64,000 bases of DNA from a virus. Position numbers and translations under genes: made by a program. Shown piece by piece: positions 2,172 through 64,000 of the stretch (position 1 is its first letter; each line of letters begins with the position of its first letter). The notes below the pieces were generated by a model that saw only the letters and a program-made list of their open reading frames with translations, was not told where the DNA came from and did no database searches. The DNA lies in IMG/VR virus record IMGVR_UViG_3300039008_000243, positions 1 through 64,000 of that record; one strand, 5' to 3'.

Positions 2172-2285
2172 CAAAGGAAAGATTGATATAATTTAAATTC
2201 AATAAGCATTTTTACTCATCCTAACAAAACACCCTTTGGCTCTAATTTGACCAGGGGAGGCTTTTTATTGAGGCTCTAGGGGGAA

Positions 2286-2894
2286 TTAATTAAGGGGTCT
2301 TAAGCGTTTTTCTTGGCGCTTTAGACACTCTTCCCGACCCTTTTTAAGCTCAATTAACCAACATATATGTCTTAGGGTTTCTTCATCAGGAAATTCCCCT
2401 TCGCCATGCCAATCTACCCACGGATTTCTGGGATCTCTGGAATAGGCTTTGATTTTCTTTGGGGGTTCCTTCTTATTGGCTGGTTTAAGGGCTTGAACCT
2501 CCTCCCTGAGAGCTTTTAGCTGGTCTGTGATGTCTGAAGCAGTTAAATGTGTTTCTCCCGTTTCGACCAGGGTTCGGATATGTATGTTGCACCAAACCCC
2601 AAATTTAGGAGATAGCCATCTCGCTATCTCAATTGCTACTAAAGGATGCCCCCAAGTACTGGCATCACCCCCAATATTATTAGTGGTTGAAACAACCAAT
2701 CCATCAGGGGGGATAATAATCCCCCCCTGCTCTGTAAGGGTTTCAGCCAACGCTTTTAAATAGTCTTTTGACTGTGTAGTTTTTAACCAATCTTTTAATT
2801 TCTTTCCGTGAGTTCTACAAAGAGATCCAAGATTCACATACTGATCTGAATCGCGTTGTTCAACTGTTTGACCCTCATATGTTAAAATTGTCAT
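2286..2894 (-). CDS. KilA-N domain protein
   Basis: N-terminal pattern YVNLGSLCRTHGKKLKDWL...STWGHPLVAIEIARWLSPKFGVWCNIHI is typical of a KilA-N DNA-binding domain, followed by a charged C-terminal half. Confidence 0.7.
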   Translation of the reverse strand: MTILTYEGQTVEQRDSDQYVNLGSLCRTHGKKLKDWLKTTQSKDYLKALAETLTEQGGIIIPPDGLVVSTTNNIGGDASTWGHPLVAIEIARWLSPKFGVWCNIHIRTLVETGETHLTASDITDQLKALREEVQALKPANKKEPPKKIKAYSRDPRNPWVDWHGEGEFPDEETLRHICWLIELKKGREECLKRQEKRLRPLN

Positions 2895-3453
2895 GATTAT
2901 TAGCCTAATCCTACTAGGTGAACGTCTGGTAGCTGATAAGAGCCAAGTTATGAGCTTGGCTGCTACTCAATTCATTCTAACAAAAATCCCCCTTTGGCTC
3001 TAATTTGACCAGGGGGATTTTTCTTTTCTGTAATTCCAATATACCCACAAACATCCCTTTAGAGGCATCTGTGAGCCTCATGAAAGCTTTTCACCCTACT
3101 CCCATGCCCTATTCGATGGTTTGCCCAAACAAGAGCCTTTAAAGAGCCAAATAAGAGCCTCATGAAAATCCCCTGTAGCCTAACAAGTTTTCATAAGTAT
3201 TTGTACTCACTAAGAGGGATGTAACAGGAGCCGCCTTAGCGACAACCTGAAAAAGCTTTTATTTAATTACGTAGTTAATTCCTGTGTCCGCTCAATAATC
3301 CCCTGTGTGCAAAATATATGACCAGGGTACTTAGAACTTTTGGAAATTTTTCTAAATATCATAAAAGCTTTTAAAAGTCAATCCCCATTCTGTATCATAA
3401 CCTGATACATTTAGCCGCTTCTTAGTGACTGGATTTTGCTGTTTTAATCAATT

Positions 3454-3822
3454 TAGTGACTTTTTAGTGAGAATTTTAAGCCATTTTAAGCCCTCAAAAG
3501 CAGTCTGTGACCAGGGTTTGGAATTTTTTAGTGAAAAAACGGTTTTCACACATGAAAAAAGTTGAAGAAATCGGACAATACGGAATATACCATAGATATA
3601 TATCTATGTATATATCATATATAATAAATATATATATATATACTTATATAATTTCTATTTCCTTCTATACTTACCTCTTACTTAGAATCTTCTCTTTCAA
3701 ATCCGTAAAATGGGCTTTTTTGGTAAAAAGGCTTTGTTCAAATTTGCAAACCCTGGTCAGGTCTACTTTTGAGGCTATTTTAGGGGTCTTCAAGTGGCTT
3801 AAAATTCTCACTAAAAAGTCAA
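3454..3822. repeat. Long imperfect inverted repeat (arms about 3454-3520 and 3748-3822) flanking about 230 bp of (TA)-rich DNA. Origin-like or partition-site-like structure, copy 1
   Basis: There is a perfect 26-bp arm core, tgactttttagtgagaattttaagcc (3457-3482), versus its reverse complement (3796-3821). An inner 13-bp pair tgaccagggtttg / caaaccctggtca lies at 3508-3520 and 3748-3760. An 18-bp palindrome catagatatatatctatg sits at 3591-3608, with runs of atatatatat. TAGTGA boxes occur at about 3423, 3454, 3465 and 3528. The arms are about 28/30 identical to those of the 31.6-kb locus. Confidence 0.6.
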
Positions 3823-4079
3823 TAAATTCGTTAAAATTATGGGTAAATACGTAGAGTTTTTTAGGTTTTTTTAGAAAAATATACCAAATTTTTTTAAGCA
3901 ATATTACTTGTAAGTATGCTACAAGACTTAAAGAGCTTTAATGAGCTTTTATTTAGGCTGTTAAAAGGCTCTTATTAGCTGTTTAATAGCTTGATAATAA
4001 TTATTTAACTAATTTTAGGTTCTCACGCGCGCGACCTTTTTGAATTACGTAGTTAATTAGATAAACTTATATAAGGCTA

Positions 4080-4108
4080 TTGACAGAATCTTGTTTTTGT
4101 TGTATTAT
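4080..4108 (+). promoter_or_regulatory. Sigma70-type promoter for the RHH gene
   Basis: TTGACA (4080-4085), 17-bp spacer, TATTAT (4103-4108). The AATTACGTAGTTAATT site lies just upstream at 4043-4058. Confidence 0.6.
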
Positions 4109-4156
4109 GTACTTAATGAATTTTTTACGTGAGAGCTTTTTTAAAGTTTTATAAAA

Positions 4157-4381
4157 ATGCCCAAAAACACCCAAGAATTAGAACAGCAACCCAAAGCAAA
4201 GCCAGGGAAAAAACCTTTTACTGATCGCAGCCTAATTAAGACCTCTGTGTCAGTCGCTTTATCCCCTGCTATCAGAGAAAAATTAGACGAGTTGGCATTA
4301 TTAGATAATTGTTCTCGTTCTCAAATAATCACAAATATTATCGAAAACTTTTTTGAAAAACGTAGCAACACCGGTCGATAA
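4157..4381 (+). CDS. Ribbon-helix-helix (CopG/Arc/MetJ-like) DNA-binding protein
   Basis: 74 aa. A basic N-terminal tail is followed by beta-strand TSVSVALSP, helix AIREKLDELALLDN and helix CSRSQIITNIIENFF. Confidence 0.65.
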   Translation: MPKNTQELEQQPKAKPGKKPFTDRSLIKTSVSVALSPAIREKLDELALLDNCSRSQIITNIIENFFEKRSNTGR

Positions 4382-4445
4382 TTTTTTGTGTTATACTTAA
4401 AGCAACTAAAAATTATTTGAAATTTTTATTTGAAATTTTTTAAAA

Positions 4446-4829
4446 ATGGCTACAAAAGATTTTCAAAGGCGTGAGGCAGATTTTGTACAGACAGAAGCAG
4501 TGACTGTTACTTGGCAAGCAAATGAAGTAGGTACTGATTTATGGCTAGATGCTACAACCACTATTGCAACAGTAGATTACACCCTGGTCAGGTATGTTAT
4601 TCCTTTGGCAGTATCTAATCAGGAATTGTTGCCTGATGGTAACTACACTCAGGCATACCAGACTGGAGGAGTTTCTGTTTATGTTTTTGATGGTACAGAG
4701 ACTGCTTATGCAGCCGGGACAGCTCCTACCTTATCTGAAGGCACAAAGCTTTCTGAAGCTCCATCATCCTCTAAAACTTTGTTTGATATCGATGCTTACC
4801 TTTTAGCTAGGGGTGTTGCCAGAAGTTAA
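4446..4829 (+). CDS. Hypothetical protein (early cassette)
   Basis: 127-aa ORF with non-junk composition, followed by a strong terminator at 4868-4912. Confidence 0.55.
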   Translation: MATKDFQRREADFVQTEAVTVTWQANEVGTDLWLDATTTIATVDYTLVRYVIPLAVSNQELLPDGNYTQAYQTGGVSVYVFDGTETAYAAGTAPTLSEGTKLSEAPSSSKTLFDIDAYLLARGVARS

Positions 4830-4867
4830 TCCCCTGGTCTCTTAAGCTTTTTTGTAGATTAATTTGA

Positions 4868-4912
4868 GCTTACAAAACTGTTCTAAAGGTTTTGTAAGCT
4901 TTTTGGTTTTTT
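4868..4912 (+). terminator. Rho-independent terminator
   Basis: 11-bp stem gcttacaaaac / gttttgtaagc, 10-nt loop, then tttttggtttttt. Confidence 0.75.
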
Positions 4913-4949
4913 ATAAGAATATTGGGTGAAAACTTTTTTTGGAAATCTA

Positions 4950-5015
4950 TTGACAATTAATTAACTAGTTAATAAGATAGGTACATAAGATAAAAAACAA
5001 ACAGGGAATACTAAA
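4950..5015 (+). promoter_or_regulatory. Early promoter-operator-leader cassette P1
   Basis: TTGACA 4950-4955, 17-bp spacer containing the palindrome ATTAACTAGTTAAT (4960-4973), TAAGAT 4973-4978. The conserved leader is gtacataagataaaaaacaaacagggaatactaaaATG. Confidence 0.75.
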
Positions 5016-5700: not shown

Positions 5701-5765
5701 ATCCTTTAGGTAAAACAAAGCCTTTATACATAAACAAACCTGGTCAAATCTAAATATACTAAGAG

Positions 5766-5792
5766 TTCCAAGGAGACTTGGGATTTTTTTTT
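5766..5792 (+). terminator. Rho-independent terminator
   Basis: ttccaag-gaga-cttggga followed by T9. Same element as at 7433-7458. Confidence 0.7.
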
Positions 5793-5822
5793 AAATGTGT
5801 AAAAACTTTTTTTGGAAATCTA

Positions 5823-5887
5823 TTGACAATTAATTAACTAGTTAATAAGATAGGTACATAAGCAAAAAACAAACAGGGAATACTAAA
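5823..5887 (+). promoter_or_regulatory. Early promoter-operator-leader cassette P2
   Basis: TTGACA 5823-5828, palindrome ATTAACTAGTTAAT 5833-5846, TAAGAT 5846-5851. The leader is near identical to that of P1. Confidence 0.75.
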
Positions 5888-6340
5888 ATGACTTACTTAA
5901 CTATCTATGAAGCACCTGTAACACCATACTACACTTCTGAGACTAATTTTGAACAAATCGAATTACCTTTAGATGTGGATGCTTACTTCGACTCTTATGT
6001 CGAATCTCACCCCGAACAAACTCTGATTGGCGCCAAAAAGGCTCAGGAAGAGCCTTTAACAATCTCTTCCAAGGGTTTAGACCAGCCAGCAAGAGCTCTT
6101 GTTTTAGAGCTTGTGAGTAGCCTTACAAAGTCTTCCAGTAATCCTAAACACTATTATCTGGAACAGCCTCACTGTTATCCCCACAACAAGGTAATGAAGC
6201 TCTTCTGTACCTTACCTAAAACCCCTGGCAAAATCAAAATCACCTGGTCAATTAAAGCTCAAAGTACGGAGTTAATAATAGATTTCCGTCTAGGTGGCTT
6301 ATCTTTCAAAAGTGTCGAAATGGTTGTTACACCTTTTTAA
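5888..6340 (+). CDS. Hypothetical protein (early cassette)
   Basis: 150-aa ORF directly behind P2. Confidence 0.55.
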   Translation: MTYLTIYEAPVTPYYTSETNFEQIELPLDVDAYFDSYVESHPEQTLIGAKKAQEEPLTISSKGLDQPARALVLELVSSLTKSSSNPKHYYLEQPHCYPHNKVMKLFCTLPKTPGKIKITWSIKAQSTELIIDFRLGGLSFKSVEMVVTPF

Positions 6341-6765: not shown

Positions 6766-7398
6766 ATGAGAACTTTTGAGTATCAAGGTAAATCTTTTTC
6801 CCAACGAGATGAAGATGGCTTTTTTAACGCTAATGAGATGTGTGAAATTTTTGGGGAATTTTTAGATGATATTTTTAACCAAGACTTCATTTGTGGGTAT
6901 TTACATTCCTTAAAGTCTAAAGTCTTGTTTACGTATTCTCCTTATGATTCATTAACTTGTTGGGTACACCCTCGTTTAGCTCTTAGGATAGCCCAGGGAC
7001 TTTCTGATGAGTTTGCTATTTGGTTTGAGGATGAAGTACTAAATCTTTGGCAAAAGTCTCAGAAAAATTCTTTAGATGTTCATATGAAAGATATTAAAGT
7101 GTCCCTAGATGAGATTAAAAAAACTTTAGAGAGTTTTCCTGAACGGAAGTTGACCAGGGATGAAAAGTATGCTTTCAAAGCTGTTACAAATAAGATTTTT
7201 GAATATATAAAAACGAGTAGTGATGGTTTTGTTAGTATAACTTTCTTGCAACAAACCTCTTTAAACAAGAAACAGTGCCTTTTGAAGTATTTTAATATTA
7301 ATTCTATGCGAGTAGAACATTGGAAAGCCTTTGGGGGGATTGTGTCTGATCTAGGGTGGCTTAACTTTGACCAAGGGAAAGGTGTTTTCACAGCTTAA
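6766..7398 (+). CDS. KilA-N domain protein (second copy)
   Basis: FNANEMCEIFGE...CWVHPRLALRIAQGLSDEFAIWFEDEV parallels the 2286..2894 protein. Confidence 0.65.
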   Translation: MRTFEYQGKSFSQRDEDGFFNANEMCEIFGEFLDDIFNQDFICGYLHSLKSKVLFTYSPYDSLTCWVHPRLALRIAQGLSDEFAIWFEDEVLNLWQKSQKNSLDVHMKDIKVSLDEIKKTLESFPERKLTRDEKYAFKAVTNKIFEYIKTSSDGFVSITFLQQTSLNKKQCLLKYFNINSMRVEHWKAFGGIVSDLGWLNFDQGKGVFTA

Positions 7399-7432
7399 TC
7401 CCCCCCCTGGTCAAATCTAGATATACAAAGAG

Positions 7433-7458
7433 TTCCAAGGAGACTTGGGATTTTTTTT
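7433..7458 (+). terminator. Rho-independent terminator
   Basis: ttccaag-gaga-cttggga followed by T8. Confidence 0.7.
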
Positions 7459-7478
7459 GTAAATGTATAAAAAATCTA

Positions 7479-7543
7479 TTGACAATTAATTAACTAGTTA
7501 ATAGAATAAGTACATAAGACAAAAACAAACAGGAAATACGGAA
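7479..7543 (+). promoter_or_regulatory. Early promoter-operator-leader cassette P3
   Basis: TTGACA 7479-7484, palindrome 7489-7502, TAGAAT 7502-7507, conserved leader gtacataagacaaaaacaaacaggaaatacggaaATG. Confidence 0.75.
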
Positions 7544-8573: not shown

Positions 8574-9119
8574 TCATAATATTTTGATCTTTCTGAATTT
8601 TATTTCTTTATGGGTTGTTTCTAATAACTTAAGGTTTACAATTTTGAGTTTTTTTAGTCTTTCATATTCTGAAAGAATAGGGTTATTTTCCCTAATATCA
8701 AAGGTTATAATAAATTTAATCCCGAAGGCTTTTAAAGTCTTAAAACAAGCCATACAAGGCATATGGGTACAAAATAACACTAACCTATTTTGAGCATTCG
8801 GGATAGTCCAGTAAGGGTAGTAAAAACTTATACCAGATAAAAAAATGTTTCTTAACGCCATTATTTCTGCATGAATAGCTCTAGAAGAGACTTCAATTTC
8901 CATACAATGATTATCCCTATCTAAAACCTGGTCACACTTCTTAGTCATGGTACAAGGATTTCCAAAAACGGTGTTTACTCCTGTACTGATAAAGGTACCA
9001 TCGGTTAAATAAATACTAGCTGCCACTTGTTGTCCCAAACAAAAACTTTCTTGGGCATACTCTTCTAGTTGAGTTTTTATTTGGGTTATTTTTAGATTTA
9101 ATTCTGTGCTTATATTCAT
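8574..9119 (-). CDS. dCMP (deoxycytidylate) deaminase
   Basis: Zinc-binding motifs HAEIMAL and PCMAC (H-A-E ... P-C-x-x-C). Size is typical for a phage dCMP deaminase. Confidence 0.85.
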   Translation of the reverse strand: MNISTELNLKITQIKTQLEEYAQESFCLGQQVAASIYLTDGTFISTGVNTVFGNPCTMTKKCDQVLDRDNHCMEIEVSSRAIHAEIMALRNIFLSGISFYYPYWTIPNAQNRLVLFCTHMPCMACFKTLKAFGIKFIITFDIRENNPILSEYERLKKLKIVNLKLLETTHKEIKFRKIKIL

Positions 9120-9430
9120 TAATACCTTATCTCTCTTACTTTGATAATTTTACCTGAATTTATCTTGATGATTTTTAGATTTTGACCAGGTAATCTTTGC
9201 ATAATTGCTTTTATACTTCTTTTTAAGCTATTTGAATGATAGAAATCCTCTATCAAAGAGTTATCTGAAGCTTTTTGAACTGCATAGGTACTTAAAAGTC
9301 CTTTGGCGATCGCCATATTTCTTTCAAATACACTAAAATTTTTTATAACGGATTCCTCAACCTGATCAGGTATATCCTTATCTGCAATTAAACTACTTTC
9401 AAAGGTATATTTTTGCATTAAAAAACTCAT
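9119..9430 (-). CDS. Hypothetical protein
   Basis: ATG at 9430 (the track start at 9433 is a TTG). Stop overlaps the deaminase start. Driven by promoter P5. Confidence 0.5.
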   Translation of the reverse strand: MSFLMQKYTFESSLIADKDIPDQVEESVIKNFSVFERNMAIAKGLLSTYAVQKASDNSLIEDFYHSNSLKRSIKAIMQRLPGQNLKIIKINSGKIIKVREIRY

Positions 9431-9481
9431 CAAGTATAATCTTAATGAGTAATTGTATTATATTAACTAGTTAATTGTCAA
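9431..9481 (-). promoter_or_regulatory. Promoter-operator P5 (minus strand) for the deaminase operon
   Basis: TTGACA (complement of 9476-9481) followed by the palindrome ATTAACTAGTTAAT (9462-9475). It is 4 bp shorter than P1-P4, so the -10 assignment (TATAAT / TAATAC) is ambiguous. Confidence 0.5.
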
Positions 9482-9482
9482 T

Positions 9483-9581
9483 TTATAAGAATATTGGGTG
9501 AAAACCCCGTGTCTTTAGACCGGGGAGTGCCAAAAACTGTAGGTATTTGACACTCCCCGTGTCTTTAGATCGGGGAGTGTC
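9483..9581 (+). repeat. Hairpin-repeat element, two tandem units
   Basis: Unit A is ttataagaatattgggtgaaaaccccgtgtctttagaccggggagtgcc (9483-9531). Unit B is gacactccccg-tgtctttagat-cggggagtgtc (9549-9581), a perfect 11-bp stem. Segments can pair alternatively (A3'/B5'). Unit A recurs inverted at 63801-63848. Confidence 0.7.
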
Positions 9582-9785
9582 AAAGTGGATTTCTTTGATT
9601 GCTGAATTAATTTTGCCCTTGATTTCAGTTAAAAGGTTCAGTTTAATTACTGAACTTTTCTTTGGACTTTTCAGATATGCATTTTGCTTACTGCTATTGT
9701 GGATATTGGGCATCTACAGGAAAAACTCTTCTGTACGTCAAATACTAACTCCAATTACCTTTTACTATAGGTTGAAAATCATCCC

Positions 9786-11171
9786 ATGAAAATTACAGCA
9801 CTTGACCCAAAGATGAATGAAGTTGTTAAGGGTACTCTCTTTAGCCGTTACAGTCGCTCTAATCTCAGTTTAGATGAATTATATGAAAGAGACTTTCAAG
9901 GTTTAGAAGGACAAGAGAAGGCTGAGGATTTTTATGAAAGGATTTTAGTTGGCTATGGTGATGAATCTATAGCAGAGCTAGGTTTTTGTCATGTAGCTAT
10001 CGAAGGTGTTTCTTTGCTGGCAGCTAAAGTTATCGAGGATAGCCGCCTTGGATTAAGTTTTATAGAGCGTTCTACCCGATACAATGACTACACACAAGCA
10101 GGTTATTACATTCCAAAAAACTTAAACCCTGGTCAAAAAACAGTGTACTGCCATTACATGAACTCTCATTTTGAGTTTTATCAAGAACTTAAAGGCGTTC
10201 TATCTAAAGCTTTTGATGATGAAGGGTTAGATAATCAATCCCCTAAGCGAACAAGAGAAGCAAGAGTTTTTGATGCTGTTCGGGGGTTATTACCAATATC
10301 TTCTTTGACCAGTTTAGGAGTTGCAGGTAATGGTAGAGCTTTTGAATTGTTGATTAATAAACTCTTGTCTCATCCTTTGCCCGAATGTAATTTAATTGGT
10401 GAGGAGATTTTACGAGAAGTTGAGAAAGTTTTACCTAATTTTGTGAAAAGAATTTCTACTAAAAAAGGGGCTGGATTCAGAGATTATTTAAGAAGTCTTC
10501 ATGAATTAAAAGAAACTTCAAAAAAAGCTTTTTATAATCATGAAAATTATGATAAAGATGATTTTAAGTTTGAACCAAATCAAAAACTTCATCTAGAGTT
10601 TTTTAATGATTTTTATAAATCAATTGGTTTAGAGTTTCTGGATATCCCTGATTTTTCAAATGATATACCCAAAGTTTTTTATGAAAATATTGTTTTAAAG
10701 ATTTTAGATTCCAGGAAATCACGTTTTGATAAGCTCCCTAGATGCTTTGAGACTGTATCTGTGGTGTTAGATGTAGCGAGTATATCTTTGGGTTGTTGGA
10801 GAGATTTACAAAGACATCGTATAGGACATCAAACATTTGATTGGAGTTTTGGTCAAGAAGCTAGAAAAAATCTCACTTTTGATATTCCAAAAGATTTTGA
10901 GTGTCTGGATAATAAGGATTTTTTCTATTATTACTCTAGATATACAAAATGTATGCAAAATGTCCTAGAGACTCCTTACAGCCTTTGTCTAGGACATAAA
11001 GTACCCTGGTCATGGTCTACAAATCTTAGGAGTTTAATTTATATGTTAGAACTTCGGAGCCAAAAACAAGGCTATTATGAATATAGACAGCTTGCCATTG
11101 ACATTTATCAAGAGTTAATTGAATTTTTTCCTAATTTTGAAGGGAAACTTTTTGTAGATACAGAGATTTAG
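9786..11171 (+). CDS. thyX: FAD-dependent thymidylate synthase ThyX, long form (461 aa)
   Basis: ThyX signature RHR-x8-S (LQRHRIGHQTFDWS) and N-terminal YGDESIAELGFCHVAIEGVS resembling the ThyX H-x-S-x-x-E-H block. About twice the usual length. Confidence 0.8.
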   Translation: MKITALDPKMNEVVKGTLFSRYSRSNLSLDELYERDFQGLEGQEKAEDFYERILVGYGDESIAELGFCHVAIEGVSLLAAKVIEDSRLGLSFIERSTRYNDYTQAGYYIPKNLNPGQKTVYCHYMNSHFEFYQELKGVLSKAFDDEGLDNQSPKRTREARVFDAVRGLLPISSLTSLGVAGNGRAFELLINKLLSHPLPECNLIGEEILREVEKVLPNFVKRISTKKGAGFRDYLRSLHELKETSKKAFYNHENYDKDDFKFEPNQKLHLEFFNDFYKSIGLEFLDIPDFSNDIPKVFYENIVLKILDSRKSRFDKLPRCFETVSVVLDVASISLGCWRDLQRHRIGHQTFDWSFGQEARKNLTFDIPKDFECLDNKDFFYYYSRYTKCMQNVLETPYSLCLGHKVPWSWSTNLRSLIYMLELRSQKQGYYEYRQLAIDIYQELIEFFPNFEGKLFVDTEI

Positions 11172-12922: not shown

Positions 12923-14215
<1,293 letters not shown>

Positions 14216-52199: not shown

Positions 52200-52248
52200 A
52201 TTAATTTGACCAGGTTATAAGAATTTAAAATAATTTAGGGAAATAGAA

Positions 52249-54307: not shown

Positions 54308-54566
54308 CTACAACTTTTTCAGTGTTTATTTTAGCCTTGGCTGTACTTCTTTTTACAGTTTTATTTGCAGATTCTTCATTATCTAAAATTATTAGGATAT
54401 GATTATCAACTAATTGATTAAAGCTTTCATGAGTTTTTAGTCTCTCTAATTGACCAGGGGTGATTTCATTAAAACCCTGGACTAATTTAATTACACTTGC
54501 AGAGCCATTGCGAAAAGTTCTAGGTGTTTTTTTAGTATTTTTGATTACAACTTTATTAGCATTCAT
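54300..54566 (-). CDS. Hypothetical protein downstream of the capsid gene
   Basis: 88-aa ORF. Confidence 0.45.
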   Translation of the reverse strand: MNANKVVIKNTKKTPRTFRNGSASVIKLVQGFNEITPGQLERLKTHESFNQLVDNHILIILDNEESANKTVKRSTAKAKINTEKVVDV

Positions 54567-56415: not shown

Positions 56416-57738
56416 TTATTTTACTAAGCCATTCTTAGAAATTCGATCTTTAACTTTTTGTTGAGATTCATTCATTCTATCTTCAAAATCATTAGTAATT
56501 TCTGAAGAAGAAGAAGTGGAGGATTGCAAAGAATCTAATTGTTGTCGGATTTTATCATTAGAATCTTTTGGTTTTACACTAGTAGATAAAGCAGCCCAAA
56601 CACCATCTACATAACCTGTTAACTGATCGCCTGAGTAGGAATCAATTTTATTCGTTGGTAATTGATTCTTAATAAATAAAATTTTAATCTCTTCCGGGGT
56701 GAGTGAATAATCGGGTTGAAAACTTTTATTATCCGCACGAAACACAGGCAAAACTTTTTCCCATAATTGCATAGAATCTGCCATCATTTGAGAAAATTGT
56801 TCCACACTATATTTATTTTGGGAATCGTTAACACTTGATTGTAAAACTTCAATCTGACCAGTGAGTTTGGCGACTTCGGCTGATTGGTTATCAACAAGCT
56901 TTTGAGATTTATTTACAATGTTTTTAACATCCTCAGTTAAATGATATTTTTTACCTTCAATTTCAATCTCTTTACAATCAATTGTATTATTTCCAATAGT
57001 ATATGTAGTCATAGTTTCGTAAATTTTTCTAATATTTGTTTCAGTCTTTTCTATTGTACCATCATCATACTCATAAGTGGAAATTATATTTTCCTCAATT
57101 TCCATAAAAGTACTTGATTTATTATCTATTTTTGGTTCTACGCCTTTAAAAGTAAAAATTATTCTATCTTTGCAATCTTTTTCATCTGTTCTTACAGTGC
57201 TTTCCTGTCCTGCACGTCCTTCACCTATTTTTAAAATAGCAACATGATCATAAATTCTGGGAGATTGTACCCAACTATTAAGAGTTTTATCGTAATCTTC
57301 AAGATATCTGCGATAACCAGGGGAAATCTCAGCCTGTAAACCAGATCCTTCTGATAAAATATCATCAATAATAGCAATGGCTCTTTTATCTAAAATAGAA
57401 CTAGCTATAGAAAGTTTAGAGTCATTTTCTTTGACAATTTCAGAAAGAGTAGACCCAACCAGAATGTTCTCATCATTCTGGTCAAATGTTCTAGTCTGTG
57501 GGTGGCCTACGGTAACCGCCATACCTACAGCACTAGCTAAAGAGTCAGGGTGAAACAAGTTACCTTTAGTTTGGTGTTCATAATGAAAGGAATCTGTCTC
57601 AGGGTTGTAGTATTGTAGTTTCTGGTCTACAGTTCCTATAGTCATATAGACTCGATAAGTACCATCAGATTTTTTTTGCCACTGTAAATCAGTTTTTTCA
57701 GAACCAATTTTATCAAAAACAATATCGTAATTTTTCAT
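56416..57738 (-). CDS. Putative scaffolding / prohead protease-like protein (DUF2213-like)
   Basis: 440 aa directly after the portal gene, with a helical Ser/Gln-rich C-terminal half as in scaffolds. Confidence 0.5.
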   Translation of the reverse strand: MKNYDIVFDKIGSEKTDLQWQKKSDGTYRVYMTIGTVDQKLQYYNPETDSFHYEHQTKGNLFHPDSLASAVGMAVTVGHPQTRTFDQNDENILVGSTLSEIVKENDSKLSIASSILDKRAIAIIDDILSEGSGLQAEISPGYRRYLEDYDKTLNSWVQSPRIYDHVAILKIGEGRAGQESTVRTDEKDCKDRIIFTFKGVEPKIDNKSSTFMEIEENIISTYEYDDGTIEKTETNIRKIYETMTTYTIGNNTIDCKEIEIEGKKYHLTEDVKNIVNKSQKLVDNQSAEVAKLTGQIEVLQSSVNDSQNKYSVEQFSQMMADSMQLWEKVLPVFRADNKSFQPDYSLTPEEIKILFIKNQLPTNKIDSYSGDQLTGYVDGVWAALSTSVKPKDSNDKIRQQLDSLQSSTSSSSEITNDFEDRMNESQQKVKDRISKNGLVK

Positions 57739-57743: not shown

Positions 57744-59084
57744 TTATAATAATTCAAGAACAAAAGAAAAGTCGTTATCTTTAAAAATTTCTTTTAAATC
57801 ATCCTCAGTCCTCACACCTAAGTCAAGTAACTTTTGATAATATTCAGTTAACTTCAAACCAAACTCAATATTTTCTGTATCTGACATTTTGAGCCCAAAA
57901 GGAAATATTATTTGTTTGTTGTTATAGGTTTCAGGGATTGAAAAAGAAGGGGATCTAACTAAATTATAAAGGATAAAATCTATATAAAATGACCATTTAG
58001 ATTTTGCATACTTATGTACTTGACATAACCATTCAAAATTTAGCATTCTAGCGGATTCGATATTATTACTTAGACCTGAAGTAGAGCCAAACTCAGATAA
58101 TAGTTTCCATCTGGGTATATCTACATTAGCCGCCAGGAATCCTTTCATCTCTGCAAGGACATCAGTCAAATTAGCTAAGTTTCTTTCTAAAGTACCTAAG
58201 ACCTCTTTATCTAAATCATAAATCCACATTTCTGAAATACTTTTATGTTGACTTAGATAATTAGCTCTAGCTTGGATAGCACTTTGATTAGTAGTTGTAC
58301 CTGAATCTTTATCTTGCTGCATTTTCAAACCTAGTCCTTTAATACCTAAAGTAAGCATTGAAGTGCTCTCTAAAAGTGAAGAGGTATTCTTTAAAGAAGC
58401 AGAAAAGATGGAAAAAGACTCTAGTAAAGAAGTTATTACTGAATCATGATGATAACCATTATAAAGATAGGACTCATAGCTCAAGATCTCTATCCCTGGC
58501 ACCTCTAAAACTCTAGAATGATGTACACGTATGCCTTGACTAGTGTATGCATAATCATCCACACCATAAGAAAAGCGATCTTGCTCATACACATATAAAA
58601 ATTCTATACCTTCGATTTGACCAAAGTTCAAAGGTGCATCTAAATTTTCATTATCTTTAAAACCAAAGACTATATAGGCTGTTCCATATTGTCGGGCAAG
58701 GATGTCTGCAAGTCTAAATGCCGAATAAATACCTCTGCATTTAATATTTGAGGAAAATTCTGTATAAACAGGTATAGCATCTAAATATTCTTTTAAGCCC
58801 TGGTTATTATAATCAGGAATATTAAATTTATAATCATTAGAATAAACACTTTCAGGATAAATAGAGCAGATACGAGATAATATGCCTGATTTACGTATCA
58901 AACCCGAAATTTCTCTACAGGTCAGCTTAGGAACTCTAGAGTCTATTCCAATTTCTTGAGTTTTTACTTTACCTGAAAATAAAGCAGCTAACTGAACAAG
59001 TTCATACTTAGCATCATTAGATATATCTAAAATATTAAAATCTTCAGTAGAAGTCTTTTTATCTGAGTTTATTATAGGTATCAT
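57744..59084 (-). CDS. Portal protein (DUF1073-like)
   Basis: 446 aa. LARQYGTAYIVFGFKDNE resembles the conserved aR-x-yGGA-l-l-l-G-x-dDG block of HI1409/DUF1073 portals. The position fits. Confidence 0.7.
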   Translation of the reverse strand: MIPIINSDKKTSTEDFNILDISNDAKYELVQLAALFSGKVKTQEIGIDSRVPKLTCREISGLIRKSGILSRICSIYPESVYSNDYKFNIPDYNNQGLKEYLDAIPVYTEFSSNIKCRGIYSAFRLADILARQYGTAYIVFGFKDNENLDAPLNFGQIEGIEFLYVYEQDRFSYGVDDYAYTSQGIRVHHSRVLEVPGIEILSYESYLYNGYHHDSVITSLLESFSIFSASLKNTSSLLESTSMLTLGIKGLGLKMQQDKDSGTTTNQSAIQARANYLSQHKSISEMWIYDLDKEVLGTLERNLANLTDVLAEMKGFLAANVDIPRWKLLSEFGSTSGLSNNIESARMLNFEWLCQVHKYAKSKWSFYIDFILYNLVRSPSFSIPETYNNKQIIFPFGLKMSDTENIEFGLKLTEYYQKLLDLGVRTEDDLKEIFKDNDFSFVLELL

Positions 59085-59487: not shown

Positions 59488-59928
59488 ATGACTATTTTAA
59501 CAGATTTAGAAAAAGAAGCTTTACTACATTTAAAAGAAATTCTTGACCAGGGGGGAGTGTTTGATAACCTGGTCGAAACTGTTACAACTACCGAAGAGAT
59601 TTTCCATGCTTGTACAAAACACAAGGTAATGAACTCCAAACCTAGCAGAAAAGTAGTAACAACAGTAGAAAGAAAAGTAACCAACAAAAAACACATTCCT
59701 GATTACATTTTAAGGTTTTTTCTAAATAAACAAGAGGTTAATCATGCTCTTTCTGTTTTAGAAAGAAATGGTTATCAAGCTATCATTGATGATAAAAATA
59801 AACAAAGTTTAGAAACTTTAAGAGAACAATTAGATGATATTTTAAAAGATGCTGACAATTCCCCAATTAACCAAGGTGACTATCAGGACTTCATCGAGGA
59901 CACACAAAGAGAATTCCTCGGAATTTAA
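59488..59928 (+). CDS. Putative small terminase subunit
   Basis: 146-aa charged protein immediately upstream of TerL. Called by position only. Confidence 0.4.
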   Translation: MTILTDLEKEALLHLKEILDQGGVFDNLVETVTTTEEIFHACTKHKVMNSKPSRKVVTTVERKVTNKKHIPDYILRFFLNKQEVNHALSVLERNGYQAIIDDKNKQSLETLREQLDDILKDADNSPINQGDYQDFIEDTQREFLGI

Positions 59929-61225
59929 GAAAAAGTTGCCTAAAGGGGGGATACTTTTACCTTACCAAAAAGAATGGTTGTTAAATTCTAAAAAATATCC
60001 AGTTTCTATTTGGGAGAAATCTAGGCGTATTGGAGCTTCTTGGGTAGTAGCCTGTGAAGCTGTTATGAATGCTAGCAAAAAAAACCATCCTGTAAATACT
60101 TATTACATATCTTATGAAAAAGATATGACAATGCAATTTATAAAAGATTGTACTTTTTTTGCTAAATTTTTTCAATCTTTGATAAAAGAAATCTACAAAG
60201 AAAAGATTATAGATGATTTTGGTAAAGATGCTTTAATTTTCAGAATCAGATTTAGTAATGGTTGTGAGATAGCCTCTTTATCTAGTAATAGTCGAAACTT
60301 AAGAAGTAAAAAAGGTAACGTAGTTATAGATGAGGCTGCTTTTGTGGATGATTTAGAAGAGGTCTTAAAAGCAGCTATAGCCCTTACCATATGGGGGGGA
60401 CAGATTAAAATTTTAAGCACACATCAAGGCAAAAATAATAGATTTAATAAATTAGTTTTTGAAGGTAGAGAGAATACTGATAACTACGTTCAAAAAACTT
60501 CTTTTATGGATGCAATCGACCAGGGTTTATATGAAAGATTATGCCTTTCAGGCACTTACCAAAATATAAAAGAAGAAAAACAAAAATTTATAAATAAAAT
60601 TTATAATATTTACAAAGATAATGCAGATGAAGAATTAGATGTTAAACCTAGAGAAGAGAGTGCCTTATCAGTATTCAGATCCACTTGGTTTATTATTTCG
60701 TCGGAGATACCAACTACATTTGATTACCTTATAAGAGCTTGGGATACAGCAGCTACTGACAAAGATGATAGCTGCTATACTGTGGGGACTCTTTTAGGGC
60801 TTAAAGGGCAGCAGATATACATTCTAGAATGGGATTACATTAAAGCTAGTGCGAGTGAAACACAGGAAAAAATAATTCAAGTTGCACGTATGGATGGCAC
60901 CGAAGTCGTCATCTATGTAGAACTTGAAGGGGGCAGCCAACCTATATTATGGCTTGAAAATAGCCTACAAAGTGTTTTAAAGGGGTATGAAATAATTGGA
61001 CAGAAAGTTATAGCCTCCAAGACTATGAGGGCTGTTTTAGCCGCCCGTGAGGCTCGTACACAGCCTTTTATAGTAGCAGAAACTGAATGGGCAAAAACTT
61101 ATATTGAAACTATATGTGAGTTTACGGGTTTAAAAAAGAAAGAGCCACTGATTAATGATTCAGTAGACTCTTTAAGTTTAGGTGTTAATGCTCTAATTGA
61201 AGGGTATAATCCTTTACTGGTCTAA
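59849..61225 (+). CDS. Terminase large subunit
   Basis: KSRRIGASWVVACEAV (KsRQ-G-s/t ATPase block), Walker B VVIDEAAFV, and nuclease-domain Asp block AWDTAATDKDD. An in-frame TTG at 59936, just after the upstream stop, is an alternative start. Confidence 0.8.
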   Translation: MLTIPQLTKVTIRTSSRTHKENSSEFKKKLPKGGILLPYQKEWLLNSKKYPVSIWEKSRRIGASWVVACEAVMNASKKNHPVNTYYISYEKDMTMQFIKDCTFFAKFFQSLIKEIYKEKIIDDFGKDALIFRIRFSNGCEIASLSSNSRNLRSKKGNVVIDEAAFVDDLEEVLKAAIALTIWGGQIKILSTHQGKNNRFNKLVFEGRENTDNYVQKTSFMDAIDQGLYERLCLSGTYQNIKEEKQKFINKIYNIYKDNADEELDVKPREESALSVFRSTWFIISSEIPTTFDYLIRAWDTAATDKDDSCYTVGTLLGLKGQQIYILEWDYIKASASETQEKIIQVARMDGTEVVIYVELEGGSQPILWLENSLQSVLKGYEIIGQKVIASKTMRAVLAAREARTQPFIVAETEWAKTYIETICEFTGLKKKEPLINDSVDSLSLGVNALIEGYNPLLV

Positions 61226-61580: not shown

Positions 61581-61901
61581 TTAACCTACTAAATTTTTAC
61601 GTTCAATCCTTAACAAATCCAATGTGACCAGGTTATAAGTAAGGATGTAAGCTCTTTTCTTATAAAGTGTCACAAAAGAACATTTAGGTTTTTTCAAGGA
61701 AGCTAAGTCAGGAATGGGTTCAGCATAGTGATGTATGTTTGACTTAATTTGATCCCAAATGAATAAAATTTCAGCATCAATACAATTAGAAAGCTCAAAC
61801 TCCTCGATCAAATGGTTTAAATACCCTTGCAAAGAAGACACAATCATAAGATTTTTAGCTTGCAAAAGATTTTTCTGTATGTTAAACATGGGTAGTTGCA
61901 T
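61581..61901 (-). CDS. Hypothetical protein, tandem paralog B
   Basis: See paralog A. The two genes are 5 nt apart. Confidence 0.5.
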   Translation of the reverse strand: MQLPMFNIQKNLLQAKNLMIVSSLQGYLNHLIEEFELSNCIDAEILFIWDQIKSNIHHYAEPIPDLASLKKPKCSFVTLYKKRAYILTYNLVTLDLLRIERKNLVG

Positions 61902-61913: not shown

Positions 61914-62432
61914 TTAAACTCCAGTAGACCCAAAACCTTGTTGTTGACGACCCGATACTTCCCTATACTTTTTAGAAAAAGAGTAAGAAAAACTAAATGT
62001 CTCAGGGATAAAAACTGGGCAACAAACTATTTGGGCTATCCTATCCCCTTGATAAATTGTATGAGCTTTATTTGAGACATTGGAAAGGATAATTTTAATT
62101 TCACCGGTATAGCCATAATCTATTGTTCCAGGAGAGTTAGAAACTACAAGCCCTTTTATTGATAAACTGCTACGACTCCTTACTTGAGCTTCTGTATACA
62201 TTTGAGTAAGCCCAATGTGACCCTCAAAATTAAAGAAAATAGGCTCGGGTAATTCTACACCCCATCCAGTCGGAATAATTTCAATCTGACCAGGGGATAA
62301 TGTTAGCTCTGCATTATCTTTACCATCATCTAAGAGAGCTCTCAAATCAAACCCAGAATCTGTACTATGCTTTCGAATAGGTGCTTGGGCTTTTGGATGT
62401 AATCTTACAAAATACATTAAATGTCTTCTCAT
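61914..62432 (-). CDS. dut: dUTP diphosphatase (trimeric dUTPase)
   Basis: Motifs DSGFDL, RSRSSL, GTIDYGYTGEI, GDRIAQIV and QGFGSTG. The true start may be the second Met (62417). Confidence 0.85.
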   Translation of the reverse strand: MRRHLMYFVRLHPKAQAPIRKHSTDSGFDLRALLDDGKDNAELTLSPGQIEIIPTGWGVELPEPIFFNFEGHIGLTQMYTEAQVRSRSSLSIKGLVVSNSPGTIDYGYTGEIKIILSNVSNKAHTIYQGDRIAQIVCCPVFIPETFSFSYSFSKKYREVSGRQQQGFGSTGV

Positions 62433-62482: not shown

Positions 62483-62794
62483 TTATTTGAACTTTTTAGT
62501 ACATTTAGAAGACCTTCTAGTAAAGACTGTACTATAACAAACAAAAAGTACCTGGTGATCGTAAAGAGAAAAAGAGTCTATAGACTTAGGTTGAGGCTTA
62601 GGTTGGGGTTTTCTAGTGAATTTAAAAGGATTTCTAACCTCATCACAGTTATTTAAAAGGGAATCACCTAAAATTTCTTGACAAAGAGTTCTCTTATTTG
62701 AGTTAGCTCTTTCTTTAGCTTGACCAGGGGAGCAAAAAGATAGAACAATTAAAGAAGATAGGGCACAAGAAGAGAAAAGATTTTTAAGAGACAT
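62483..62794 (-). CDS. Small secreted Cys-containing basic protein (paralog 2)
   Basis: ATG at 62794 gives the signal peptide MSLKNLFSSCALSSLIVLSFCSPGQA. The C-[EQ]-x-[FI]-LG...C pattern is shared with 62854..63168. Confidence 0.5.
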   Translation of the reverse strand: MSLKNLFSSCALSSLIVLSFCSPGQAKERANSNKRTLCQEILGDSLLNNCDEVRNPFKFTRKPQPKPQPKSIDSFSLYDHQVLFVCYSTVFTRRSSKCTKKFK

Positions 62795-62853: not shown

Positions 62854-63168
62854 TTATTTCTTGCAACGGTTACGACGACCACCCAAACCATGACGATAAC
62901 CACGAATAGCTGCTACATCAGCTTCATAACCTCTAGGGGCTTTTTGTTGATTCTTACAAGTATTAGAAGGTTTTTTAGAAGGTTTTTGAGGACTTCTATT
63001 TATATTCTTACAAGAACCAGGGATAACAAAACCTAAAAATTTCTCACAACGAATAACGATCTTGTCAGATGTTTCAAAACGTCCTGAGCCTCTTTCGTTA
63101 GCAGAAACAGTTTGAGAAGGCAATAAAGAAGAGATCAACAACAAGGAAAGTAGCAATTTAGATTTCAT
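62854..63168 (-). CDS. Small secreted Cys-containing basic protein (paralog 1)
   Basis: Signal peptide MKSKLLLSLLLISSLLPSQTVSA, then a Lys/Arg/Pro-rich mature part. Confidence 0.55.
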   Translation of the reverse strand: MKSKLLLSLLLISSLLPSQTVSANERGSGRFETSDKIVIRCEKFLGFVIPGSCKNINRSPQKPSKKPSNTCKNQQKAPRGYEADVAAIRGYRHGLGGRRNRCKK

Positions 63169-63235
63169 GATTGTTAACTTAAGATGAAAGGAATAAAGTA
63201 GATGTACTAAATGAACTGGAAAGCTGTGTAAAAAC

Positions 63236-63385
63236 TTACTTAAGCTTATTTAAGTTTGTTTGTTGAATTTCTAATAGTAACTCCTGTTTGTCTACTTTTT
63301 TATCATATTCAGGGCGTTCAACAGGTTCTACGGGTTTAAAAGGAAAGGGAAAAGCCAGTGAAGGATTTTTGATTTCTTGTGACAT
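63236..63385 (-). CDS. Small ORF (49 aa, below the track cutoff)
   Basis: Manual translation gives MSQEIKNPSLAFPFPFKPVEPVERPEYDKKVDKQELLLEIQQTNLNKLK. Co-oriented in the operon. Confidence 0.3.
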   Translation of the reverse strand: MSQEIKNPSLAFPFPFKPVEPVERPEYDKKVDKQELLLEIQQTNLNKLK

Positions 63386-63440
63386 AAACTTTTAGATTTT
63401 TGGGGACTAAAAATTTTCTAAGGCTTTTTGATAAATTTTA

Positions 63441-63656
63441 TTAAAATCCAGGATAATTTCTTATACAAGAAGAGGATTTATTCTTCAAACTTCTCAAAAG
63501 TTTTGAGTTAGCTGTAGCATCGGTAGCGAGTTCAAGAAGATATTGGTGTAAATCTATTTGACGATATTGTCTATGGAATTTAATTATCTCTTGAAGTTCA
63601 TTAAAAACTTCTGTGGGAATTTCTAAGGCAATGGTTACGTGTTTGGGTTCTGTCAT
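63441..63656 (-). CDS. Ribbon-helix-helix-like small protein (71 aa), first gene behind P6
   Basis: HVTIALEIPTEVFNELQEIIKF has a beta-strand plus helix pattern. Weaker than the other two RHH calls. Confidence 0.5.
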   Translation of the reverse strand: MTEPKHVTIALEIPTEVFNELQEIIKFHRQYRQIDLHQYLLELATDATANSKLLRSLKNKSSSCIRNYPGF

Positions 63657-63717
63657 TTAGTATTCTCCGTGTTTTTCTTATGTAAACATAATAATTGATT
63701 AACTAGTTAATTGTCAA
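63657..63717 (-). promoter_or_regulatory. Early promoter-operator-leader cassette P6 (minus strand)
   Basis: TTGACA (complement of 63712-63717), palindrome ATTAACTAGTTAAT 63698-63711, TATTAT at 18 bp. The leader ttacataagaaaaacacggagaatactaaATG resembles P1-P4. Confidence 0.65.
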
Positions 63718-63763
63718 TAGATTCTAGAAAAAAAGTTTAAAAGCTTTAAAAGTTGATTCTTTG

Positions 63764-63792
63764 TTGACAATTAATTAATTAATTAATAGACT
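63764..63792 (+). promoter_or_regulatory. Divergent sigma70-type promoter P7 with (TTAA)n spacer
   Basis: TTGACA 63764-63769, 17-bp spacer attaattaattaattaa, TAGACT 63787-63792. It points into the hairpin-repeat element and out of the window. Confidence 0.5.
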
Positions 63793-63800
63793 AGGGACTT

Positions 63801-63848
63801 GACACTCCCCGGTCTAAAGACACAGGGTTTTCACCCAATATTCTTATA
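63801..63848 (-). repeat. Inverted copy of hairpin-repeat unit A
   Basis: The reverse complement, ttataagaatattgggtgaaaaccctgtgtctttagaccggggagtgtc, differs at 2 positions from 9483-9531. Confidence 0.7.
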
Positions 63849-63855
63849 AAAAAAA

Positions 63856-63879
63856 ATTCCTAGAAACATCTCTAGGAAT
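63856..63879 (-). terminator. Rho-independent terminator for minus-strand transcription entering from the right
   Basis: attcctaga-aacatc-tctaggaat, followed on the minus strand by T9. Confidence 0.65.
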
Positions 63880-64000
63880 CAATTAAGCTCTAATTTGACC
63901 AGGTTGATTATTCTCTAAAACATTTATTAGAGTCACAGGACATGGGAGCTTGCTCCTTACCCTGGTCATATTTAGCTAATAATTGTCCGAAATCTTCTGA

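Follow-up and report, generated by a model that had tools for sequence, protein, structure and literature searches.

Introduction

The closest described counterparts of the feature reported here are template words read by primases and oligomers iterated through whole genomes. The feature is the heptamer GACCAGG (CCTGGTC on the opposite strand), which is hyper-abundant in 64,000 nucleotides of viral DNA (positions 1 to 64,000 of the IMG/VR record IMGVR_UViG_3300039008_000243, referred to below as the window; about 5 kb of the contig lie beyond it). Primases start primers with purines, and several read a defined template site. NrS-1 primase-polymerase (PrimPol) requires the template 5'-TTTGGTTA-3', which its helix-bundle domain recognizes, and begins synthesis at the base immediately upstream (Zhu et al. 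2017, PMC8718748). The template site of pRN1 ORF904 is GTG, and that of the human, Thermus, and BcMCM PrimPols is 5'-CCTG-3', with initiation inside the site (PMC8718748). T7 primase (gp4) uses 5'-TGGTC-3', along with GGGTC and GTGTC (PMC2910064), as a recognized, partly uncopied template element that is followed by primer synthesis. Among iterated words, the DNA uptake sequences (DUS) of Neisseriaceae and the uptake signal sequences (USS) of Pasteurellaceae are non-palindromic 9-12-mers found about once per kb, balanced between strands and in all frames; they form lineage dialects, show site turnover, and act as terminators in inverted pairs. Chi, including its occurrence in the Chi-rich phages LLS and P1 (PMC12315714), is a G-rich asymmetric word of at least 5-8 nt, the most frequent phage oligomer, maintained by selection and accompanied by frequent near-cognate oligomers. 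Highly iterated palindrome 1 (HIP1; GCGATCGC) is a hyper-abundant, GC-rich, frame-independent oligomer of cyanobacterial-world genomes.

The window word resembles each of these in part. With the NrS-1 site it shares the form of a long asymmetric T/G-rich template word, a TGGT(T/C)A core that recurs in the C-rich strands of words from this phage clade, and a position adjoining the primase gene. The protein encoded at 32034-34694 shares with NrS-1 PrimPol an archaeo-eukaryotic primase (AEP) domain, a helix bundle, and a ring helicase-like C-terminus, at a sequence identity of only about 14%. In contrast, NrS-1 has a single site without enrichment and primes also at GTG, whereas the window word occurs about 100 times on both strands. 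TGGTC of T7 lies inside CCTGGTC, but T7 gp4 is a DnaG-type primase whose 3-5-nt site needs no enrichment, while an AEP PrimPol and an 8-11-nt word are considered here. DUS and USS belong to bacterial chromosomes and are read in either orientation by a competence receptor; the window word is phage-private, is not a feature of host-like DNA, and is evenly spaced on each strand. Chi is the host's word, enriched in the host, strongly oriented in cos phages, and present about once per 1.9 kb, whereas the window word is unoriented, about 2.5 times denser, different between related phages, and not enriched in the host group. HIP1, in contrast to the asymmetric, phage-only window word, is a palindrome found throughout the host and linked to cognate methyltransferases; some relatives of this phage carry HIP1 or CGATCG above host density. 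Neither the word strings nor phage-private, dialect-forming iterated words are described in the literature searched; host Chi taken over by phages and the uptake sequences of bacteria come closest. GACCAGG is a phage-private signal read in a strand-specific manner, and its likeliest function, put forward tentatively, is that of initiation site for the PrimPol-helicase encoded at 32034-34694.

Abundance and distribution of the word

The window contains 83 exact copies of GACCAGG/CCTGGTC (45 on the plus strand, 38 on the minus strand), in agreement with the numbers and positions obtained by eye in a preliminary description of this DNA. Dinucleotide-preserving shuffles give 2.69 +/- 1.63 copies (maximum 6), and the zero-order expectation is 1.67, close to the one to three copies first estimated and corresponding to an enrichment of about 50-fold. 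No other 7-mer in the window is as strongly over-represented. The word differs from its own reverse complement and is thus non-palindromic.

The flanks follow the rule noticed at the outset. The 5' neighbor is T at 58 copies, C at 15, A at 10, and never G; the 3' neighbor is G at 53 and T at 30, never A or C, and the base after that is never C. The extended consensus is H-GACCAGG-K, or ttT-GACCAGG-K-t in fuller form. GGWCC and GGNCC are avoided to an extreme degree, which accounts for the absence of a 5' G; CCWGG, equal to GGWCC in base composition, occurs 158 times in the window. The only clearly frequent one-off variant is AACCAGG (20 copies, 3.5 expected). An earlier impression that such variants are common therefore holds for AACCAGG, but not for the other 20, which together reach about 1.5 times expectation, nor for GACCAAGG, which at two copies is not notable. 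The sites are distributed as follows.

2249-63967, both strands: array H-GACCAGG-K, 83 exact copies and 20 AACCAGG; 53 sites on the plus strand and 50 on the minus strand, about 1 per 1.2 kb per strand
Plus strand, GACCAGG: 2249-2255, 2565-2571, 3007-3013, 3320-3326, 3509-3515, 7152-7158, 9184-9190, 11546-11552, 13906-13912, 14480-14486, 17513-17519, 19445-19451, 20207-20213, 20774-20780, 21400-21406, 22508-22514, 23502-23508, 23808-23814, 26500-26506, 27523-27529, 29122-29128, 30560-30566, 31698-31704, 33879-33885, 36488-36494, 37803-37809, 38699-38705, 39440-39446, 41234-41240, 42344-42350, 42413-42419, 42635-42641, 44909-44915, 49272-49278, 50408-50414, 51318-51324, 52208-52214, 54248-54254, 54452-54458, 59545-59551, 60518-60524, 61626-61632, 62288-62294, 62722-62728, 63897-63903
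Minus strand, GACCAGG: 3752-3758, 4583-4589, 4833-4839, 5739-5745, 6243-6249, 7406-7412, 8927-8933, 10128-10134, 11005-11011, 11820-11826, 13996-14002, 15182-15188, 16288-16294, 17033-17039, 18007-18013, 19505-19511, 21556-21562, 23529-23535, 23886-23892, 27338-27344, 28185-28191, 29031-29037, 31988-31994, 32857-32863, 33469-33475, 34870-34876, 35705-35711, 39359-39365, 40230-40236, 41507-41513, 42662-42668, 44321-44327, 48846-48852, 50334-50340, 52511-52517, 54066-54072, 59568-59574, 63961-63967
Plus strand, AACCAGG variant: 15142-15148, 16688-16694, 22367-22373, 29532-29538, 35591-35597, 48248-48254, 57315-57321, 63015-63021
Minus strand, AACCAGG variant: 13395-13401, 14245-14251, 21733-21739, 29488-29494, 30671-30677, 37184-37190, 38317-38323, 41215-41221, 42725-42731, 43523-43529, 56037-56043, 58799-58805

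Open reading frames (ORFs) hold 68 of the 83 copies (28 sense, 40 antisense); the 15 intergenic copies represent about twice the intergenic share of the sequence. Copies within ORFs use five of the six frame/orientation classes; in the sixth, the word would usually create TGA. The in-frame readings PGQ at 10128, PWS at 11005, and TLV at 4583 are as first given, and the independence of strand and frame proposed with them, intergenic DNA included, is borne out. The two orientations are interleaved along the window (48 runs, 42 expected), with no strand switch, and a replication-polarity signal was rejected on these grounds. Close plus/minus pairs inside genes (23502/23529, 42635/42662, 59545/59568) number about three, against 0.9 expected.

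This distribution makes it extremely unlikely that the word is a transcription signal, either a -35-like element (TTGACC) or part of a terminator hairpin. Such a role would suit the 35 of 83 copies that read TTGACCAGG, the T-runs that follow some intergenic copies, and the terminator-like hairpins built from inverted word pairs in two related contigs (L203 and L207, below). However, most copies lie within genes in both orientations, most are single and outside hairpins, and the early promoters proper belong to a different element, TTGACA-N17-TAAGAT with an operator, present in five copies. A sigma-70 promoter role is largely refuted on this basis. In the stoperator arrays of cluster A mycobacteriophages, sites are mostly intergenic and co-oriented with transcription; a repressor array of that type was rejected, given the intragenic copies in both orientations.

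The preliminary description also remarked that the word is missing from an insertion sequence (IS) at the left end of the window:

17-1886: IS200/IS605 element without the word; TnpB 17-1396, minus strand; TnpA 1464-1886, plus strand

The element indeed has no copy, but with an expectation of about 2.7 copies for 2 kb (P about 0.07) this carries little information. An origin of the word from the IS, or as the transposon-associated motif of TnpB, was discarded, the element itself being free of it.

Selection at the DNA level

Codon-aware null models, of the kind suggested in the preliminary description, were applied to the 68 copies in ORFs. Shuffling synonymous codons within genes gives 9.8 +/- 2.7 copies and shuffling codon order gives 2.8 +/- 1.7, which excludes codon usage or chance as the source of the abundance. 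The word occupies 37% of all positions at which the protein sequence permits it (68/182), and 67-82% of compatible positions in the frames encoding DQG/DQV, PGQ, and PWS. The proteins themselves are distorted: DQG occurs 14 times (2.5 expected), PGQ 12 times (1.8 expected), and PWS five times (0.5 expected), and word-compatible tripeptides number 182 overall, compared with 132 +/- 11 in shuffled proteins. GACCAGG is kept dense by frame-independent selection acting on the DNA itself, a constraint that had been likened from the start to those on HIP1, uptake sequences, and Chi.

A HIP1-like drive is very unlikely to account for this density. Under such a scheme a methyltransferase, for example the Dam-family enzyme encoded at 52249-52893, and very-short-patch-type repair convert near-cognate sequences to the word, which has no function at individual sites. 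The CCWGG core is the classic Dcm/Vsr target, and a methyltransferase gene is present in the window. In cyanobacteria, HIP1 is so explained in the passage of PMC5101192 that cites Elhai 2015. However, transition variants of GACCAGG are undepleted (GATCAGG 7, GACTAGG 3, GACCAAG 2, GACCAGA 3, and AACCAGG 20, each against 3.5 expected), as mutation-selection balance around a favored word predicts and efficient conversion of near-cognates does not. The sole methylase found is of the adenine type and would meet no A on the word's C-rich strand; neither Vsr nor a 5-methylcytosine methylase was found among the window ORFs. These observations tell equally against the very-short-patch repair raised in the preliminary description, and the modification-target reading offered alongside it gives no reason for enrichment.

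The word is phage-specific and varies among relatives

A set of cyanobacterial DNA totalling 617 kb, nearly all of it from Nostocales, contains 13 copies of GACCAGG, against about 41 expected from composition. The set comprises loci around TnpB homologs and stands in for the host. The word is phage-specific; a host-wide feature, the alternative that a count in host DNA had been proposed to decide, was rejected on these counts. HIP1 occurs about once per 1.3 kb in the same DNA, but only once in the window (0.1 expected from composition), far below the density in the host group, which is a further point against a HIP1-like drive.

Related contigs were recovered through terminase homologs and, independently, through PrimPol homologs; they are fragments, not whole genomes. 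The comparison with related phages called for in the preliminary description shows that these lack GACCAGG and carry similar words of their own. Six other uncultured phage lineages each have a hyper-abundant, strand-balanced word, which in five occurs about once per 600-800 bp (TAACCAAGGGG, CTTAACCAGGTT, GTCCAGGGT, GAAGCGGGGGT) and in the sixth about once per 1.1 kb (AATCCAGG).

L038 and L201: TAACCAAGGGG, 18 copies each in 13-14 kb, strand split 8/10 and 9/9
L207/L208: CTTAACCAGGTT; TAACCAGG 19 times in 15 kb (0.33 expected), AACCAGG core split 10/11
L200: GTCCAGGGT/ACCAGGGT; CCAGGGT 22 times in 13.7 kb, strand split 11/11
L203/L204: tGAAGCGGGGGt, 21-23 copies in 11.9 kb, strand split 12/11
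L037/L205: AATCCAGG; ATCCAGG 16 times in 17 kb (1.2 expected)

L037/L205 are the closest relatives of the window phage both by gene content and by PrimPol. L038 and L201 have the same word, yet their DNA is only about 65% identical, and in a 2.5-kb alignment one of five site positions is shared, one is a single base off, and three are unshared. Such turnover of sites under a conserved word points to many interchangeable sites and a conserved, lineage-specific reader. In L203 and L207, inverted word pairs followed by T-runs lie between genes as terminator-like hairpins. Other relatives (L039, L040, L042, L202) lack a private word and are hyper-rich in HIP1 or CGATCG; the presence of HIP1/CGATCG in place of a word in L039, L040, and L202 is what a HIP1-like drive would have in its favor. 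Within the terminase clade, these palindromes reach or exceed host density (35 HIP1 in 14 kb of L040, 78 CGATCG in 21 kb of L039), and L203 carries HIP1 in addition to its private word.

A Chi-like function, in which the word regulates a translocating helicase-nuclease of the host or phage, halting degradation of phage DNA from breaks and promoting recombination-dependent replication while word-less host DNA is degraded, is unlikely. It would be in keeping with the form of the words, which like known Chi sites are asymmetric, G-rich, and 7-11 nt long, and with the existence of phages rich in host Chi (LLS, 1 per 1.86 kb; P1, 1 per 1.9 kb; PMC12315714). A ResIII/DEAD helicase and a DHH/RecJ-like exonuclease are among the gene products of the window as well. 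Within the L203 word GAAGCGGGGG lies GAAGCGG, the Chi site of S. aureus. Also contained in it is AGCGG, the Chi site of B. subtilis (PMC5101192). However, Nostocales DNA is not enriched, and among cyanobacteria with large genomes recBCD is poorly conserved, with Anabaena sp. 90 lacking it (PMC5101192). No RecB/AddA-like gene, and nothing resembling RecBCD or AddAB, was found among the window ORFs scanned. Chi-rich phages are strongly oriented (20:3 in LLS), compared with 45:38 interleaved copies here. The Chi-like signal of the preliminary description thus meets host-like DNA without enrichment, scanned window ORFs without a RecBCD/AddAB-like gene, and an array without polarity.

Spacing on each strand and origin-like regions

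Spacing was analyzed for GACCAGG and AACCAGG pooled as RACCAGG (53 plus-strand and 50 minus-strand sites). On each strand the sites are more evenly spaced than by chance, with coefficients of variation (CVs) of gap length of 0.72 (P=0.008) and 0.76 (P=0.023). Mean gaps are 1.19 kb (plus) and 1.23 kb (minus); gaps below 300 nt are half as many as expected, those above 3 kb are also fewer, and the largest GACCAGG gaps are occupied by AACCAGG variants. When sites of both strands are pooled, regularity is not significant (CV 0.87, P=0.09), and permuting strand labels over fixed positions raises the mean per-strand CV from the observed 0.74 to 0.91 (P=0.002). In the relatives, seven of eight strands have a CV below 1 for their own word. 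Even spacing on each strand indicates that the word is read in an orientation-dependent manner, each strand needing its own coverage of about one site per 1.2 kb.

Two paralogous regions with inverted arms and AT-rich cores resemble replication origins, and a third was found in L205, upstream of the homologous PrimPol gene.

3440-3836: origin-like region 1, paralog of region 2, with 65-nt inverted arms and an AT-rich core at 3585-3660; inward-facing words at 3509 (plus strand, left of the core) and 3752 (minus strand, right of the core)
31602-31984: origin-like region 2, with 68-nt inverted arms and an AT-rich (TA)n core at 31770-31830; inward-facing words at 31698 (plus strand, left of the core) and 31988 (minus strand, right of the core)
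L205: origin-like region with ATCCAGG at 1522 (plus strand), an AT-rich core at about 1690-1760, and GTCCAGG at 1887 (minus strand)

The arms are 83% complementary in region 1 and 99% in region 2, and in both they carry the iteron TTTTTAGTGA, which has no exact copy elsewhere in the window. Both cores are rich in (TA)n. Region 2 lies directly upstream of the PrimPol gene at 32034-34694. With a plus-strand word on the left and a minus-strand word on the right, 5' to 3' synthesis along the G-rich strand from either would cross the core. The L205 region follows the same plan, built from the L205 word, within 1.1 kb upstream of its PrimPol gene.

These patterns bear on each of the alternatives. 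A HIP1-like drive predicts neither the even spacing per strand nor the geometry at the origin-like regions; for a Chi-like signal, the spacing of each orientation would suit a polar element needed both ways, but the arrangement around the cores is not predicted. They also make it quite unlikely that the word is an orientation-independent array that a phage protein binds in order to package or compact the DNA or to recognize it as self. Candidates would be the small terminase, a KilA-N protein, and a nucleoid-type protein, with accumulation as for DUS and USS. Density, strand balance, dialects, turnover, and terminator pairs all mirror DUS and USS, and two KilA-N genes lie in cassettes flanked by longer, word-containing repeats. 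However, a reader blind to orientation, as in the binding array of the preliminary description, predicts regularity of the pooled sites and not the even coverage of each strand separately that is seen. Moreover, no such protein is tied to the word by evidence, and for terminases the function would be new.

A candidate reader

The gene downstream of origin-like region 2 encodes a PrimPol-helicase.

32034-34694, plus strand: PrimPol (AEP) with helix bundle, DUF3987/VapE-like helicase, and C-terminal winged-helix-like end, 886 aa, PF13148

Residues 1-220 match PF09250 (E=1e-4, 23.2 bits against a curated cut-off of 22.8). Word-index protein searches found no homologs of the N-terminus and pattern scans were defeated by divergence of the alignments, whereas an exhaustive search of representative sequences with the N-terminal 430 residues yielded 68 homologs, mostly of 850-1050 aa. 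Their alignment retains the catalytic DxD, the H-P, and the EGxRN...LAxDL signature of the helix bundle. AlphaFold (AF2) models have a mean predicted local distance difference test (pLDDT) score of 85.3 for residues 1-310 and of 81.5 for the whole protein. In the PDB, all six top Foldseek matches of residues 1-310 are N300, the fragment of NrS-1 PrimPol that spans the PrimPol and helix-bundle domains (E 2e-4 to 3.5e-3, probability 0.97-1.0), making it the closest solved fold; CAPP Prim-Pol and RepB' come next. Matches of the full-length model also include pRN1 primase and MCM/Cch-type helicases. On this evidence, the window genome encodes an NrS-1-like AEP primase-polymerase with a helix-bundle domain.

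All three contigs that carry this PrimPol family (the window, L205, and L207/L208) bear a hyper-abundant word, different in each. A distant homolog belongs to a cyanobacterial integrative element (L206, 9336-13235), where the PrimPol-helicase gene adjoins an MmeI-type methylase/endonuclease and an SNF2 helicase.

The words themselves resemble the template sites of this class of enzyme, a sequence comparison made post hoc. Their C-rich strands read CCTGGTCA (window), CCTGGTTAAG (L207), CCCCTTGGTTA (L038/L201), CCTGGATT (L205), and ACCCTGGAC (L200); four of the five begin with CCTG, and three carry TGGT(T/C)A. The C-rich strand of L038/L201 matches the NrS-1 site at seven of eight positions. The G-rich strand, on the putative primer side, ends in G or a G-run in the window and in five of the six relatives.

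A model for distributed initiation

The word may therefore be considered as a distributed initiation site for the PrimPol. On unwound DNA, the helix-bundle domain would take the C-rich strand 5'-(M)CCTGGTCA-3' as template, and the primer would start within the TGGTC core or just 5' of it on the template. A primer 5'-(A)GGK... on the G-rich strand would then be extended by the family A polymerase. On a template-strand stretch carrying the word, 5'-AACCCTGGTCAAA-3', priming is predicted to depend on CCTGGTC(A). If a long word is needed, chance would supply fewer than one per 30 kb, and the genome would accumulate interchangeable copies about every 1.2 kb per strand, the scale of Okazaki fragments, allowing repeated priming on both strands. 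Copies at the edges of the AT-rich cores would be used for initiation there. A replication advantage of site-rich segments may, beside selection, drive accumulation, and co-evolution of the enzyme, through its helix-bundle domain, with the word would give related phages their different dialects. The four mechanisms of the preliminary description (modification target, very-short-patch repair, Chi-like signal, and binding array) fit the observations less well than PrimPol sites would.

Several points weigh against this model. The link between enzyme and word is indirect, and the 7/8 match to the NrS-1 site was noticed post hoc. The NrS-1 genome has a single TTTGGTTA, at 17198 just after the primase gene, and no enrichment, so that the precedent covers word-specific initiation and not genome-wide accumulation. 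Known primases get by with 3-4-nt sites, and the need for a long word is itself hypothetical. The fold matches have low TM-scores (0.32-0.39), a consequence of the different orientation of the two domains. Possession of the PrimPol is, in this sample, confounded with membership of the phage clade, and the fragments of L038, L200, L201, and L203 do not include PrimPol genes. L207 has no inward word pair upstream of its PrimPol gene, and L206, with the distant homolog, is HIP1-rich cyanobacterial DNA without a private word. Finally, orientation does not switch at the origin-like regions (22 plus and 15 minus copies to the right of 32 kb).

It is tempting to take the PrimPol model one step further, to a private replication code in which the PrimPols of this cyanophage clade prime only at their own 8-11-nt word, so that the dialects of enzyme and genome (GACCAGGK, TAACCAGGT, AATCCAGG, GTCCAGGGT, TAACCAAGGGG, GAAGCGGGGG) are mutually unintelligible. 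This stronger version is somewhat doubtful.

The phage and its host group

The window virus is an uncultured, long-tailed siphovirus that very probably infects Nostocales cyanobacteria. It encodes a large terminase, portal, capsid and cement proteins, and an amidase; ThyX, dCMP deaminase, dTMP kinase, and dUTPase for nucleotide metabolism; a family A DNA polymerase, a helicase, and a DHH/RecJ-like phosphoesterase for replication; and a Dam-family methylase and two KilA-N proteins. The Dam-family gene reported in the preliminary description has a PF05869 match.

25134-27659, minus strand: family A DNA polymerase with 3'-5' exonuclease
27652-29169, minus strand: ResIII/DEAD-box helicase
34697-35680, plus strand: DHH (RecJ-like) phosphoesterase adjoining the PrimPol gene, phrog_4771
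52249-52893, plus strand: Dam-family N6-adenine methyltransferase, PF05869, phrog_111

The TnpB of the IS200/IS605 element is 75-84% identical in amino acid sequence to copies from Dolichospermum, Scytonema, Calothrix, Nostoc, and Rivularia, so that an element nearly identical in protein to Nostocales copies sits in a lytic-looking phage genome; TnpB genes are also present in the relatives L037 and L039. Several palindromes are avoided (positions 2001-64000): GGWCC occurs once (28.9 expected), GGNCC once (42.8), GGCC seven times (42.8), TTCGAA twice (21), ACATGT twice (21), and ATGCAT seven times (21). We take several of these to be Anabaena/Nostoc restriction sites (AvaII, AsuI, AsuII, AvaIII). 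The TnpB identities together with the avoidance of Anabaena/Nostoc-type palindromes make a Nostocales host very probable. AAGCTT, in turn, is enriched (64 copies, 21 expected), with AAAGCTTT at 23 sites, and is enriched also in the related contigs L038, L201, L206, and L207.

No close match was found among 50,697 GenBank phage records, which leaves the group uncultured: megablast with positions 25000-45000 gave no nucleotide match, PrimPol gave no match, and large terminase (TerL) matches were half-length and Mu-like only. Scans of IMG/VR with TerL and with PrimPol homologs found no close relatives, and matches in one metagenome scan were dominated by Mu-like terminases. PDB sequence searches with the ORFs at 29248-30387, 30470-31546, and 34697-35680 returned no matches.

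A tape measure protein of 3593 aa (39252-50033, minus strand, PF20155) implies an unusually long tail of about 0.5 micrometre, at the usual 1.5 Angstrom per residue; an N4-like virion RNA polymerase was considered for this ORF and rejected. The dTTP-supply module (8574-11171, 18267-18878, 61914-62432) comprises dCMP deaminase, an unusually long ThyX (461 aa), dTMP kinase, and dUTPase/DCD, and its weight is consistent with a genome of 32% G+C. The sigma-70-type promoter TTGACA-N17-TAAGAT/TAGAAT/TATAAT is found at five positions (4950-4991, 5823-5864, 7479-7520, 51765-51806, 63764-63805), and its spacer is the palindromic, operator-like ATTAATTAACTAGTTAAT. A 98-nt cassette of word, terminator hairpin, and promoter occurs at 5739-5836 and 7406-7503. 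The 32-nt direct repeat AAA(A/T)C(A/C)CCCTTTGGCTCTAATTTGACCAGGGG at 2226-2257 and 2984-3015 flanks the KilA-N gene at 2286-2894 and has a related copy at 63874-63905; it may delimit a cassette that is mobile or regulatory. Tandem 30-nt repeats at 9505-9534 and 9555-9584, CCCCGTGTCTTTAGA(C/T)CGGGGAGTG(C/T)CAAA, each with an internal CCCCG...CGGGG stem, lie inside a called 76-aa ORF (9483-9713) just upstream of the divergent thyX.

Implications

Genome-wide iterated words such as Chi, uptake sequences, FtsK-orienting polar sequences (KOPS), and HIP1 are rare views of the machines that read DNA. Those known so far are cellular, or host words borrowed by phages; here they are a phage clade's own, denser than the known examples and changing between relatives. 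As HIP1 takes the place of a private word in sister phages, the words may also shed light on why HIP1 exists. Should another protein prove to be the reader, they would still give a testable handle on a DNA transaction. If the PrimPol is the reader, this would be the first genome shaped wholesale by the specificity of a primase, its enzyme/site pairs would be ready for sequence-programmed priming, and uncultured cyanophages could be binned and classified with the words as k-mer signature. A private replication code, if true, would serve at once as lagging-strand priming signal, as a self/non-self filter by which the replisome would avoid host and competitor DNA, and as a barrier to productive recombination between lineages, and would be a phage analog of the DUS dialects at the level of replication.

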